Origin: a bacterium
GTDB lineage: Bacteria; Patescibacteriota; Minisyncoccia; UBA6257; WO2-44-18
Length of the DNA stretch: 64,000 nt
Assembly: GCA_030646995.1 (NCBI GenBank)
Contig: JAUSKF010000002.1
Coordinates: 76,092-140,091 of the forward strand
Reading direction: 5' to 3'
The notes beneath the pieces are model-generated. The model searched no databases. It saw only the letters and a list, made by a program, of their open reading frames with translations, and was not told where the DNA came from. The position numbers and the translations under genes are program-made. Each line of letters starts with the position of its first letter. The first letter of the stretch is position 1. Below are positions 50,291 through 54,704 of this stretch, in pieces.

Positions 50291-50532
50291 TGCTCCTTTG
50301 CTGGATTCGAATTATTAAACTGCTAAACGGAATTATACAGTTTGGGAACGAATTGGGCAACGAGTGATATCTAAATTTTTATATCTTCAGTCTACTCCCG
50401 CTTTTCAAGATTATAGAAGTGCATAAGTACTTTGTCGGTTGTTTTATCCCGCTACGCGGGATCCCGCCTTATTTATATTTAAAAATAGTGCGGCGGGACA
50501 AAATTCGGATTTCATGGTATCATCCAGGCAAT

Positions 50533-51240
50533 ATGGACAATGAAATTTTCCCGATGCGTCTCAATAAATATCTCGCTTGGAAAAAACTGGCTAGCCGCCG
50601 TGAAGCGGACAGGTTGATTTCAGACAAAAAAGTACTCATCAATGACAGGGTGGCGGTTTTGGGTGATAAAGTTTCAGAAAAAGACGTTGTAAAAATCATC
50701 GAAAGAAAGGGTAAAGAAGAACTTCCAAAATTAACCGTCGCACTAAACAAGCCACGCGGTTTGATTTCGGCCATTAATGAGAAGGGCGGCGAAACAATCT
50801 TTGATTATCTACCTCAATACAAACACCTCAACGCCGTCGGCCGGCTAGATAAAGAAAGCGAGGGTTTAATTCTGCTTTCCAACGATGGAGTTCTCACCGC
50901 CGTCGTTACCAGCGAAAAACATCTAATTGAAAAGGAATACGAGGTTCAGGTTTGGGAAAAAATTCAACCGTTGAGTCTTAGGCGCTTAGCGGAAGGCGTT
51001 CTACTGGATGGCAAAATGACTCTGCCGGCCGTAGTAGAGCAGCTAAATGACATGTCTTTTTCGATAGTTTTAAAAGAAGGACGCAAACATCAGATTCGCC
51101 GGATGGCCGCCGAGACACATCTGACAATTAAAAATTTGAAAAGAATTCGTATAGGGAAAATAACACTCAAAGAAATTGAAAAACCCGGCGAATATCGGGA
51201 ACTGAAGCCGGAAGAAGTAAATAAACTAAAAAACGCCTAA
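50533..51240 (+). CDS. RsuA/RluB/RluF-family pseudouridine synthase with S4 domain
   Basis: RLNKYLA...SRREAD, LNKPRG, GRLDKESEGL, EGRKHQIRRM. Confidence 0.93.
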   Translation: MDNEIFPMRLNKYLAWKKLASRREADRLISDKKVLINDRVAVLGDKVSEKDVVKIIERKGKEELPKLTVALNKPRGLISAINEKGGETIFDYLPQYKHLNAVGRLDKESEGLILLSNDGVLTAVVTSEKHLIEKEYEVQVWEKIQPLSLRRLAEGVLLDGKMTLPAVVEQLNDMSFSIVLKEGRKHQIRRMAAETHLTIKNLKRIRIGKITLKEIEKPGEYRELKPEEVNKLKNA

Positions 51241-51255: not shown

Positions 51256-51276
51256 TGGTGCCGCGGGAGGGAATCG
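51256..51276 (-). repeat. displaced duplicate of the tRNA-Phe 3' end carrying CCA (att-like)
   Basis: Minus strand CGATTCCCTCCCGCGGCACCA; 51258-51274 is identical to 51455-51471. Confidence 0.9.
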
Positions 51277-51413
51277 CCTACAACTCTCGCCTCGCCGTCG
51301 CTCGGTTCGGTCGCAGGCCGCCCCTCGCGACCCCGCAAGCTTGCGGGGTATCGCTGCGTTCTTCAATATCCCTACGCGAGCCAAACAATTGGCTCGCTCC
51401 CGCCGCTACAAAC

Positions 51414-51450
51414 AAAAAATAAAGCGCCTTTTCGTGGCGCTTTATTTTTC
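51414..51450 (-). terminator. terminator after tRNA-Phe
   Basis: AAAAATAAAGCGCC-TTTTCGT-GGCGCTTTATTTTT. Confidence 0.7.
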
Positions 51451-51455
51451 TGTTG

Positions 51456-51761
51456 TGCCGCGGGAGGGAATTGAACCCCCGACGCCAGCCTCTTCCAAAG
51501 GCTAGTTGGACTATCTCATTCCCGTTCTTAAAAACTTAAGAGTGCGGGATCGGGCGCTATTGCAGGATTATTGTTGGGACTCACCTGCTAGTCTCTACAC
51601 CTTCCAGAAAACTTAAACCCTTTCTGGCTCGGCTCGGGATTGTCGTATGCATATTTTACTATACATCCGGTTTTCCCCGAATTCACCCAATTTTTCGATC
51701 CGCATTACTACGGAAGGCCCCAAAGATCTAGGGCTGCGCTCTACCACTGAGCTACCGCGGC
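51456..51761 (-). tRNA. trnF: tRNA-Phe(GAA), intron-containing; exons 51761-51730 and 51495-51456
   Basis: Joined exons fold as a cloverleaf: GCCGCGG TA GCTC AGTGGTA GAGC G CAGCC CT GAA GA GGCTG GCGTC GGGGG TTCAATT CCCTC CCGCGGC A. Confidence 0.93.
51496..51729 (-). ncRNA. group I self-splicing intron (234 nt) at tRNA position 33/34
   Basis: Follows U33 and ends in G; P AATTCGGGGAA, Q AATCCCGAGC, R GTAGAGACTA, S ATGAGATAGTCC; P1 GCCCU/GGGGC, P3 TTGGGTG/CGCCCGA, P7 GACTA/TAGTC. Confidence 0.92.
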
Positions 51762-51764
51762 ATA

Positions 51765-52469
51765 CTAACTAAAATTGTGGTTCTTAACGCCATCTATCCA
51801 GCCAATTATGCGATGGAATAGCTTGGTATCACTTATTCTAACCTGCAAAACCCCATAAGGCAAGCGATTAAATGGCCTCTTTCCCATACTGGATTTACTA
51901 ATTCCAAGATAGGTTTTATTAAAGTTCTCCCTGGGAATACCGGTTGTCTTAACCCAATACTTCAGGGTCGCCTCAGCATTCATATGTTGAAAAATTCTTA
52001 AATTGGCTTTTATTTTCTCGACCGGTACTTTACAAATCTTTTTAATAAACGCCAAGAAGACATTGATTAAAACCGGATCAGCATTAGTAAGACTAATGGG
52101 GTGATATGTGACTTCCCTTCCACCTCTCACAATCGGCCGCTTATACCCCTCCGCCCAGTACAACGCCAAACCGATAAAAAATAGATTCTGAATAGAGATA
52201 TTTGCAATCTCGCCGTGCGCTAATTTCTGGATTTCTTCTTTTCTTTGCAGAGCCAAATGAGTTTGATTTTTATTTCTTTTCAAAAGGCCTTCCAACGATT
52301 TTTGTTTGGACCGATTCTCAATTTTTTCCCTTGCACTCGCGGATAAAACTATGTTTTTCAACCATAGCGACAAAGTAGACTTAGAAATACCAGGCAAGGT
52401 TTTCTGGATTTCGCTATAACTCTTGCCCTGCAACCGTAGCTTAATGGCCGAGAATTTATCATTACGCAT
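51765..52469 (-). CDS. HTH plus LAGLIDADG-like homing-endonuclease-fold protein
   Basis: N-terminal HTH (GKSYSEI...ISKSTLSLW); IGLALYWAEG helix followed by ISLTNADP..I. Confidence 0.75.
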   Translation of the reverse strand: MRNDKFSAIKLRLQGKSYSEIQKTLPGISKSTLSLWLKNIVLSASAREKIENRSKQKSLEGLLKRNKNQTHLALQRKEEIQKLAHGEIANISIQNLFFIGLALYWAEGYKRPIVRGGREVTYHPISLTNADPVLINVFLAFIKKICKVPVEKIKANLRIFQHMNAEATLKYWVKTTGIPRENFNKTYLGISKSSMGKRPFNRLPYGVLQVRISDTKLFHRIIGWIDGVKNHNFS

Positions 52470-52597
52470 TATATATATCATAGCGCCGTCGTTCGATTAT
52501 ATCAACCCTCCCGCGACACAAAAATCAATAAATAAAAATCCCCGCCACTATGCCATAGCATAGTGGCGGATATAAAAAACAGGCCCTAGGGCCTGTT

Positions 52598-52917: not shown

Positions 52918-54093
52918 TTACCGCTCTTTGGCAATCTTCTCGCGGATTTCTTTCAAAAGTTTTTCCATAAAAGAAAGATTGTGGATAGTGGTCAGAATCG
53001 GGCCAAGCATTTCCTTGGCGTTAAAAAGATGGCTAATGTAAGCGCGGGAATAATTGGCGCAAGTATAACAACCGCAATCTTTATCAATCGGATTCTTATC
53101 TTTTCCATAGCGGCCGGATTTTATATTCAAGCGTTCGCCGCGCAGTAAAGCTCCTCCATTCCTTCCTAAGCGAGTCGGCGCTACGCAATCGAAGGTATCT
53201 ATCCCCCGCTTCACCGCTTCCCAAATATCTTCCTCCGAGCCGATTCCCAACAAATGCCGCGGTTTATTTTCCGGCAATAATGGAATCGTCCAATCCAAAA
53301 TCTTATACATATCTTTTTTAGACTTACCCAAGGAACCACCGATGCCAAAGCCATCAAATCCCATTCCGCCAATTAGTTTCGCGCTTTTCAAACGTAAATC
53401 CTTATAAGCTCCACCCTGCACGATACCGAAAAGAGCCTGACTTTGGACTAACGACTTTGGACTAACGACTTTGGACTTGAATGCCGCTAAGCAACGCTTA
53501 GCCCAATTATGTGTGCGCTCCAAAGATTTTTTAGTATATGCGTAGTCATGTAAAGGGGAAGTGCATTCATCAAAGGCAAAAATCAAATCAGCGCCTAGAT
53601 TCTCCTGAATTTTTATAGATTTTTCAGGAGTGAAGAAATGCTTTGAGCCGTCTAAATGCGAACGAAATTCAACTCCGTCATCGGTGATAGTGGTCAAACT
53701 CTGTCCGCGCGGAGAATTTTGCTTGTGCGCAAGCTCGGCTTCCGACGGGAAGATATTCGCAATCTTGCTCACGCCATGTTCAATTGCCGCCCCTAAGCTA
53801 AAGGCCTGAAAGCCGCCGCTGTCTGTCCAGATCGGCCGATCCCAGTTCATAAACTTATGAAGCTTACCAATTCTTTTCACCGTCAAATCTCCCGGCCTCA
53901 AGTAAAGGTGGTAGGTGTTACAAAGCAAAGATTCAGAGCCGATGGCTTTTAATTGATCGGTGGTTAAGCCCTTAATCGCCGCCTGCGTCGCTACGGGAAT
54001 AAAAGCCGGAGTATTAATCACGCCGTGCTTTGTGTGAATTTCTCCAAGTCTTGCGCGGGACTTTTTTGATTTCTTTAAAATCTTAAATTCCAT
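52918..54093 (-). CDS. tgt: tRNA-guanine transglycosylase
   Basis: NTYHL.LRPG, TDSGGFQ, GIVQGG, PRHLLG, FDCV.PTR, CxCxxC, HNL. Confidence 0.97.
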   Translation of the reverse strand: MEFKILKKSKKSRARLGEIHTKHGVINTPAFIPVATQAAIKGLTTDQLKAIGSESLLCNTYHLYLRPGDLTVKRIGKLHKFMNWDRPIWTDSGGFQAFSLGAAIEHGVSKIANIFPSEAELAHKQNSPRGQSLTTITDDGVEFRSHLDGSKHFFTPEKSIKIQENLGADLIFAFDECTSPLHDYAYTKKSLERTHNWAKRCLAAFKSKVVSPKSLVQSQALFGIVQGGAYKDLRLKSAKLIGGMGFDGFGIGGSLGKSKKDMYKILDWTIPLLPENKPRHLLGIGSEEDIWEAVKRGIDTFDCVAPTRLGRNGGALLRGERLNIKSGRYGKDKNPIDKDCGCYTCANYSRAYISHLFNAKEMLGPILTTIHNLSFMEKLLKEIREKIAKER

Positions 54094-54140
54094 AGAATAC
54101 TTAATACTAGCTACTTTCTACTAACTACTAAAATTGTGCG

Positions 54141-54704
54141 CTAGGCGCGCACGATTTTATAAGGCTTCTTTGTCAAGTCTACTATCTTAGAGCCTTTTGT
54201 CTTTTTATTGATACCTGCATGGATAACCGCATCGATCATTTCCGCCGTTTTCTTGAACATTTCCTTATATTGGGAAGGGTCCCTCAACGGATCTTTTCCC
54301 GCAACGTTAGCGCTGGTCGCTATGATTGGCCTATCGAAGTAACGAAACAATTCCTTGGTCCAACGATGTTTGGCCAAACGAAAAGCGCCGGTGTGCTTCA
54401 TCGCCGCCAACGGAGAAAGATTTTTAGCTTTTAAAATGAAAGTGGTCGGCTTCTTAGACTTAGTCATCGCTTTTTTCTGGTCGGGACTAAAAGAAGCGTA
54501 CTCCGCCAACATATTAAAATCTTTAACCAGAATCGGAAAAGCCTTACCAATCTGGCGGCCTTTTATCTGATAGATCTTCAACAGCGCCTGCGGATTAGTG
54601 GCATCACAGCCGAGTCCATACAGAGTTTCAGTCGGAAAAATCATCACGCCGCCGGCATTAAGGATTTGAGTGACTTCTTGAGGTTTTAAGCTTATTTTAG
54701 GCAT
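54141..54704 (-). CDS. tsaC: threonylcarbamoyl-AMP synthase (YrdC/Sua5 family)
   Basis: PTETLYGL, KGR, TSAN, SKIVD. Confidence 0.92.
   Translation of the reverse strand: MPKISLKPQEVTQILNAGGVMIFPTETLYGLGCDATNPQALLKIYQIKGRQIGKAFPILVKDFNMLAEYASFSPDQKKAMTKSKKPTTFILKAKNLSPLAAMKHTGAFRLAKHRWTKELFRYFDRPIIATSANVAGKDPLRDPSQYKEMFKKTAEMIDAVIHAGINKKTKGSKIVDLTKKPYKIVRA

Follow-up and report, generated by a model that had tools for sequence, protein, structure and literature searches.

The sole tRNA-Phe gene found in a Patescibacteria genome is split by a group I intron that lacks P9 and may hold its 3′ splice site by pairing with the tRNA

Group I introns are usually described with helix P9 among their standard, even essential, parts, and P9 is present in the IC3 introns of Azoarcus tRNA-Ile and Anabaena tRNA-Leu. 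The locus described here raises the question of how an intron that encodes no P9 could hold its 3′ splice site. It lies in a window of 64,000 nucleotides, the whole stretch of DNA that was analysed, from a Patescibacteria genome (G000; 751 kb in 6 contigs, 97.8% complete). A sequence-only reading of this window had placed a 234-nt insert between U33 and G34 of tRNA-Phe(GAA), had taken it for a minimal ribozyme in which pairing between the intron tail and the 3′ exon stands in for P9, and had suspected that standard tRNA finders miss the gene. The parts of the gene, all on the minus strand, are:

51730..51761 (-): tRNA-Phe 5′ exon (positions 1-33, ending in U33), identical to the intron-free alleles in L010 and L011
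51496..51729 (-): group I intron of 234 nt, IA1-type, with no ORF and no P9
51456..51495 (-): tRNA-Phe 3′ exon (G34 to the discriminator; CCA is not encoded)

The suspicion about tRNA finders holds for ARAGORN in its default setting, which did not call the tRNA-Phe(GAA) gene, but not for the same program with introns allowed, which called it and placed a 234-nt intron behind U33. Once joined, the exons give 72 nt that equal the intron-free alleles of L011, from the same genus, and L010, from the same order, and because of this identity both splice sites are fixed where the sequence-only reading had put them. The features of the intron class at tRNA-Phe 33/34, namely insertion after U33, U(-1) and a terminal G, are all present. 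ARAGORN made 45 uninterrupted tRNA calls in the genome, of which none was for Phe and none for Asn; the split gene is the sole Phe tRNA found in this 97.8%-complete assembly, where the sequence-only reading had proposed looking for another copy. Among DNA contigs from 4 of the 7 runs listed, those of the probable source run contain the whole stretch in four overlapping pieces with 0 differences, which is not independent support. The tRNA-Phe intron is real and sits in a gene that is apparently essential. Across 30 loci from 61 genomes, a complete intron-bearing Phe gene was found in 9 genomes (G000 included) and an intact gene in 18.

The genome carries two group I introns, one in tRNA-Phe and the other in tRNA-Asn. 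The latter interrupts tRNA-Asn(GUU) at 35/36 (L001 1455-1779, minus strand, corresponding to G000:C1:7779-8103), has a normal P9, and lies in the only Asn tRNA found in G000. ARAGORN labeled its host gene 'tRNA-Thr', a label in the wrong register that we rejected, and the gene reads as tRNA-Asn.

Is the ribozyme core intact, and what occupies the place of P9? The intron matched the Rfam model RF00028 with an E value of 2e-8, although its 41.4 bits do not reach the gathering score of 50, and Rfam models other than RF00028 gave no match. In this alignment P9 could be filled only by extending into the 3′ exon, that is, with the tail plus the 3′ exon. An unconstrained fold of the pre-tRNA, for which the MFE and centroid structures are the same (z -3.8; 0/100 shuffles as stable), contained P1 with an extension, P2, P3, P4, P5, P6, the P7 extension (P7ext), P8 and a 9-bp helix between the tail and the 3′ exon, and left the acceptor, D and T arms intact. 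The elements of the intron, again on the minus strand, are:

51717..51734 (-): P1/P10 region, from the fold and from the homolog P1 and P10 counts
51700..51713 (-): P2 with a GNRA loop (GUAA), from the fold
51549..51691 (-): P3, pairing 51691-51684 with 51556-51549, from the fold and from compensatory pair types across homologs
51633..51681 (-): P4 (51681-51676 with 51638-51633) and P5/P5a (51670-51643); the P5 base is without a CC:GG receptor
51604..51627 (-): P6a, whose loop GGG (51620-51618) is one strand of P11
51562..51588 (-): P7 extension (P7.1), whose loop CCC (51578-51576) supplies the second strand of P11
51508..51595 (-): P7, the guanosine-binding helix, pairing 51595-51589 with 51513-51508
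51521..51548 (-): P8 with CC:GG pairs (predicted L2 receptor), from the fold
51496..51507 (-): 12-nt tail in the place of P9, ending in the terminal G
51485..51505 (-): predicted hybrid hairpin, pairing tail 51505-51497 with 3′ exon 51493-51485 (A36/G37-G44), with the splice junction in its loop

The core elements P3, P4, P6 and P7, the joining segments and the G-binding pair are all present, and together with the RF00028 match they bear out the call of a group I intron. The terminal G, whose boundary is set by the intron-free alleles, is accompanied by a P10 of 5 bp, as had been proposed. No P9 hairpin lies within the intron, since only 12 hairpin-free nucleotides follow P7. The tail had been counted as 13 nt, but under the standard core model the first C of that count belongs to P7, as its final base. 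With no P9 domain in the intron there is neither a P9.1 nor a P7ext-P9.1 contact, and the P5 receptor for an L9 GNRA contact was not found in this intron. The hybrid hairpin is predicted with pair probabilities of 0.93-1.0 for 8 of its 9 pairs and would be worth about -12 kcal/mol in this pre-tRNA.

Two features mark the intron as IA1-type, in agreement with the IA-like type first proposed: the extension between P7 and P3, and a P11 pseudoknot between the P7ext loop and P6a, of a kind known from an IA1 intron (excerpt of PMC12088405). Among the matches listed, the P11 triplets are complementary in 72/72 IA1-like homologs (66 CCC, 3 UCC, 3 CUC), the guide G is kept in 110/111 homologs with a full intron, P1 has 4-7 bp in 50/50 unique short-tail combinations, and P10 reaches at least 5 bp in 83/88 short-tailed and 20/22 long-tailed introns. 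The 17-nt P7ext loop (51583-51567) is nearly invariant over 72 otherwise divergent introns, and P11 explains only 3 of these nucleotides. The description as a minimal ribozyme does not stand: P2, P5, P6a, P7ext, P11 and P8 are all present, and 234 nt is long beside the 205 nt of the Azoarcus intron (PMC3895272, in excerpt) and the shortest short-tailed homologs, which have 195 nt among the matches listed.

To place the missing P9 in context, we searched for homologs with a pattern of the intron 3′ end joined to the Phe 3′ exon, which excluded tails longer than 35 nt. At least 119 loci (about 200 estimated) and 9 earlier loci gave 128 rows, from which 3 duplicates and 1 row that was not tRNA-like were removed, leaving 124. 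These 124 introns, among the matches listed, come nearly all from Patescibacteria, and their tail lengths are bimodal, with 98/124 short (5-17 nt) and 26/124 long (27-35 nt). Also among the matches listed, 97/98 short tails are without an internal hairpin, while each of the 26 long tails holds one (P9), capped by a GNRA loop in 23; L012 and L013 are examples of P9-bearing introns. A control pattern with an equal length window, directed at introns whose 3′ exon begins with UAA (from several phyla, in Asn and probably Leu tRNAs), returned a P9 hairpin in 119/119 cases (119 of about 2200 matches). Four other short-tailed homologs pass the RF00028 threshold at 61-72 bits (among the matches listed). 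An exact pattern from the tail of this intron found 0 matches in the genome-contig database. P9.0 is not universal, both of its pairs being possible in 38/98 short tails among the matches listed.

The loss of P9 seems to have recurred. Both peripheral types include short tails (61 IA1-like and 27 two-stem, among the matches listed). On the intron tree these are scattered, with 14 changes, at least 7 of them forced by starred branches, so that a single origin is not supported; the tree has 210 columns, 33/107 of its inner branches are open, and recombination would give a like pattern. A rule that P11 makes up for P9 likewise found no support, with IA1-like architecture in 61/88 short against 11/21 long introns (p 0.2, among the matches listed). 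Loss goes with exon sequence: among the matches listed, exons with G39-G40 accompany 72 short and 4 long tails, and those with G39-C40 accompany 26 and 22. In 20/26 P9-bearing introns (among the matches listed), the opening 9 nt of the tail can already form a duplex with the Phe exon start at -2 kcal/mol or lower; tails from the control site reach this value against a Phe-type start in 108/119 and against their own exon in 40/119 (119 of about 2200 matches). Deleting the P9 loop and 3′ strand would leave a hybrid helix immediately, which could explain why P9 was lost again and again at Phe.

Several homologs deserve mention in their own right. In L110, and likewise in L204 and L213, the terminal G is immediately preceded by a miniature P9 hairpin of 4-5 bp, which may represent an intermediate of P9 reduction. 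L006, L120, L142 and others have tails of 5-8 nt, some without predicted exon pairing, and may represent the smallest 3′ ends or decaying introns. Recurrent palindromic inserts, resembling small repeat elements, occupy the P5, P6 or P8 loops of L008, L070, L134, L146, L083 and L105.

Whether short tails are matched to the exon across the splice junction can be read from related introns. Over 72 unique tail-exon combinations among the matches listed, 271 positions are paired; permuting the exons gives 206.6±7.2, with 232 as the highest value in 2000 permutations. The mean cross-junction energy of short tails, again among the matches listed, is -6.7 kcal/mol, against -4.5±0.2 permuted (0/1000 as low) and -2.0 shuffled; for long tails it is -2.6 against -2.0 (14/1000), and permutation tests on these introns overstate the effect, as related sequences are not independent. 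Mutual information in one fixed register was reached by 0/5000 permutations at position 41 and 96/5000 at position 42, and was not significant at positions 40 and 43 (271/5000 and 422/5000). Phylogenetically independent pairs on the intron tree are few, none is significant, and the choice of register is partly circular; those pointing in the direction of pairing number 4/4 at position 40, about 4/6 at 41 and about 5/10 at 42, and 0 point the other way. Exon stems that differ in sequence come with correspondingly matched tails, and they do so in distinct regions of the tree.

The base choices in the tail are informative as to what it is fitted to. In 50 combinations among the matches listed, chosen for a known 5′ exon and at least 3 tail-exon pairs, the tail has U opposite A38 in 44/50 and never the C of the 5′ exon. 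Opposite position 39 it departs from the 5′ exon in 17 cases, making G.U in 17, and opposite position 43 in 28, making G.U in 22; at position 42 it mismatches the exon in 8/50. By these choices opposite 38, 39 and 43, the tail is fitted to the 3′ exon and is more than a copy of the 5′ exon. An earlier description of the tail as a mimic of the anticodon stem is right in that it matches the 3′ strand, but falls short in that the tail also pairs opposite positions 37 and 38, which the 5′ exon cannot. The comparison of related introns supports a tail-3′ exon match kept by compensating changes, and the proposed pairing gains from this covariation. Some tails stand apart, 12 of the 72 unique short ones among the matches listed pairing by less than 3 kcal/mol and some not at all, so that either P9 can be lost without pairing or such introns are decaying.

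These unpaired tails would suit a reading in which P9 is dispensable and the match has no role in splicing, being a relic of P9 loss (a copied piece of the 5′ exon or a remnant P9 strand) or guide pairing. The complementarity that P9 5′ strands already have to the Phe exon start (the 20/26, and 108/119 at the control site, among the matches listed) fits such an origin, and matching tails are mostly equal to the 5′ exon at positions 39-42. We nevertheless consider this account unlikely. Nearly every departure of a tail from the 5′ exon makes a G.U or Watson-Crick pair with the 3′ exon, the fit to position 38 being improved in the 44/50 noted above; the match reaches positions 42-44, beyond most P1 helices; and different exon stems have tails that match them in distinct regions of the tree.

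On balance we think it probable that this P9-less IA1-type intron in the sole Phe tRNA gene found self-splices by way of the predicted helix between its tail and the 3′ exon, set at the place of P9. In the first step, the 5-bp P1 would take G29-U33 and thereby open the anticodon stem. The freed 3′ strand (G37-G44) would then pair with the tail directly behind P7, tying the 3′ splice site to the core, while the terminal G would be held in the loop and the G site left to free GTP. After the first splicing step, the guide would take G34-A38 as P10, opening the loop-proximal pairs, so that the terminal G and a 2-bp P9.0 could enter the core, and pairs with 39-44 may keep the exon tethered. Following ligation, the anticodon stem would re-form and displace the tail. 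The roles of P9.0 and P10 have been reviewed (excerpt of PMC6155759), and the terminal G is described as competing with free G in step 1 (PMC2588497, in excerpt); looping it out until P10 forms would, given this competition, put the two steps in order. Splicing persists in an engineered construct derived from Tetrahymena that retains just P9.0 and the terminal G, and the yield rises with arms that hold the ends together (PMC11417360, in excerpt); reduced 3′ ends can thus work.

The opening of the anticodon stem admits a different use of the tail, as a decoy that captures the 3′ strand of that stem and leaves the 5′ strand free for the long P1. The 4-7 bp of P1 overlap the anticodon stem in every case, the tail matches the 3′ strand of that stem, and P9 loss accompanies G39-G40 exons in the 72/4 against 26/22 split given above (among the matches listed). 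We judge such a role improbable. In nearest-neighbour models, in which tRNA tertiary structure has no part, P1 is favoured even when the tail is left out (-85.0 against -81.3 kcal/mol). When the tail is replaced by A, P1 remains above 0.5 in 83/88 short introns among the matches listed, and long-tailed introns share the long P1, mostly without such a helix. Since P1 opens the anticodon stem in these energy models whether the tail is present or not, there is no need to invoke a role as decoy alone.

A closer substitution has also to be weighed, in which the G-G-A-A loop of the hybrid hairpin is a GNRA tetraloop that docks on P5 as L9 does. The hairpin begins 2-5 nt after P7, as P9 does, has the length of P9 (7-9 bp), is aligned as P9 by Rfam, and is closed by the terminal G plus G-A-A in 56/98 introns among the matches listed. 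GNRA loops of P9 normally dock on P5 (PMC2813881, in excerpt). A P5 receptor pattern occurs in 16/88 short against 17/21 long introns and, in its strict form, in 0/88 against 10/21, all among the matches listed; it is slightly commoner with a G-G-A-A loop (12/52 against 4/36, among the matches listed). This intron has no receptor, its loop has one extra U, and the GNRA look may be accidental, because the anticodon fixes three of the four loop bases. Full mimicry of P9 is on these grounds quite improbable. Because the receptor has decayed in the short-tailed class, the L9-P5 tertiary contact of P9 appears to have been lost rather than replaced, and the idea of pairing in place of P9 stands for position and helix but not for this contact. 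For the tail-exon helix, the simplest reading is that it would serve to tie the 3′ exon to the core.

A wider proposal, which we put forward tentatively and with some doubt, would treat most Patescibacteria tRNA-Phe introns as a natural class of ribozymes in which intron and tRNA each contribute a strand to a P9 that spans the 3′ splice site. This hairpin, capped by the terminal G and the anticodon (G-G-A-A), would act as a switch, hiding the terminal G during step 1 and releasing it on P10 formation, and P9 would have been lost repeatedly since the Phe exon start offers a ready partner for the P9 5′ strand.

The surroundings of the gene contain further elements, one of which could in principle supply a protein for splicing:

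51765..52481 (-): ORF of 238 aa that ends 3 nt upstream of the tRNA, with an HTH at its N terminus and a domain that is weakly LAGLIDADG-like
51450-51414 (-): terminator-like hairpin, preceding a structured module
51256..51276 (-): second copy of the tRNA 3′ end, 21 nt, with CCA, behind the structured module of about 140 nt

The ORF is a candidate free-standing homing nuclease with a weak fold assignment. It has a conserved GxALYWAEG helix; Pfam and PHROGs matched the HTH only, and a PDB sequence search and Foldseek returned nothing at E 0.001. VIA-align gave Z 6.3 to 7qsu (rmsd 3.7, 79 residues) and Z 5.9 to 1mow (rmsd 4.6, 94 residues), each tied with unrelated rows. A related-locus search with the ORF led to 1 distant locus, close homologs (at least 48% identity) occur in 4/61 genomes, all four with the intron, and the genome itself holds three more distant paralogs. 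Among the matches listed, homologs lie within about 1.5 kb of 34/72 intron-bearing and 0/16 intron-free tRNA-Phe loci with enough flank, the intron-free loci being of one order only, and they stand upstream or downstream in either orientation.

This proximity is what would speak for a protein that makes up for P9, such as the product of this adjacent gene acting as a maturase. No such gene is near 30/56 short-tailed loci, and one is present at 8/16 P9-bearing loci (among the matches listed), so that the gene follows the intron and not P9 loss, and we regard a maturase as very unlikely. Homing would explain the link better, and from gene positions collaborative homing fits the association better than a maturase role. 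As in the collaborative homing described in an excerpt of PMC3984707, an ORF-less intron stands beside a free-standing nuclease-like gene; that account concerns phages, whereas here the nuclease is a candidate only. LAGLIDADG genes inside CPR rRNA introns are known (excerpt of PMC11270868).

The structured module within 51256-51450 (-) folds strongly (z -8), and related modules lie behind tRNA-Phe in L034, L135, L148, L095 and L096 and in the intron-free L024. RNA-modification genes flank the locus at 52918-54704 (-) and 50419-51240 (+), comprising a queuine tRNA-ribosyltransferase, a Sua5/YrdC protein and an S4-domain pseudouridine synthase. That the intron is dead, or that its 3′ splice site lies further downstream and the hairpin is an ordinary intronic P9, could draw on the sub-threshold Rfam score and the second tRNA 3′ end downstream, but is scarcely credible given that the assembly has no other tRNA-Phe, the core motifs are intact, the second tRNA 3′ end lacks an anticodon arm, the 72-nt allele of the relatives results from the proposed cut alone, and the four short-tailed homologs at 61-72 bits (among the matches listed) exceed the threshold.

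About 100 natural introns without P9 occur in genes that appear essential, and sister introns that keep P9 at this very site serve as internal controls. What P9 is for, and how a 3′ splice site is held in its absence, can thereby be tested directly, using a 306-nt transcript and mutations made in pairs. An intron structure that co-evolves with the sequence of its host tRNA would restrict transfer between hosts, and the compact design may be of use for splicing or circularising ribozymes. The finding also explains why such tRNA-Phe genes score under the Rfam threshold and go unannotated.

Patescibacteria tRNA introns studied by Nakagawa, Amikura, Omae and Suzuki in 2025 reportedly belong mostly to subgroup IA, lie at 35/36 in tRNA-Asn and tRNA-Asp, and self-splice in vitro. 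They share phylum and gene type with our intron, and the tRNA-Asn intron of G000 (L001) is of their kind, whereas the Phe intron interrupts tRNA-Phe at 33/34 and is without P9. A P9-less class with conserved tail-exon pairing has no account in the accessible literature, a coverage that stops short of the Nakagawa 2025 text and the Williams alignment, both of which may bear on novelty. Bacterial anticodon-loop tRNA introns were catalogued in 21 site classes by Williams 2020 (bioRxiv 10.1101/2020.01.27.920355), and ours resembles them in U(-1) and terminal G, in its place in the anticodon loop, and in the route of detection by ARAGORN and covariance models; the main text of that source is silent on P9, tail length and tail-exon pairing.

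An intron without P9 was called very unusual in the case of the trans-spliced rnl intron of Prasinoderma, a single fragmented organellar example for which a missing third piece or helper factors were proposed and, in the excerpt of PMC3873408, no exon pairing. The IA1 intron of the Candida albicans mtLSU shares with ours the P7 extension and a P11 pseudoknot to an extended P6, but has a P9 domain and a P7ext-P9.1 contact (PMC12088405, in excerpt), whereas the Phe intron is without any P9 element. The Azoarcus tRNA-Ile and Anabaena tRNA-Leu introns are likewise compact and dependent for splicing on exon structure beside the splice sites; in them the two exons keep their anticodon stem, which supports a P1 that is very short (excerpt of PMC3895272). 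The Phe intron would be the reverse of this arrangement, its long P1 being predicted to open the anticodon stem and its tail to take up the 3′ exon strand.
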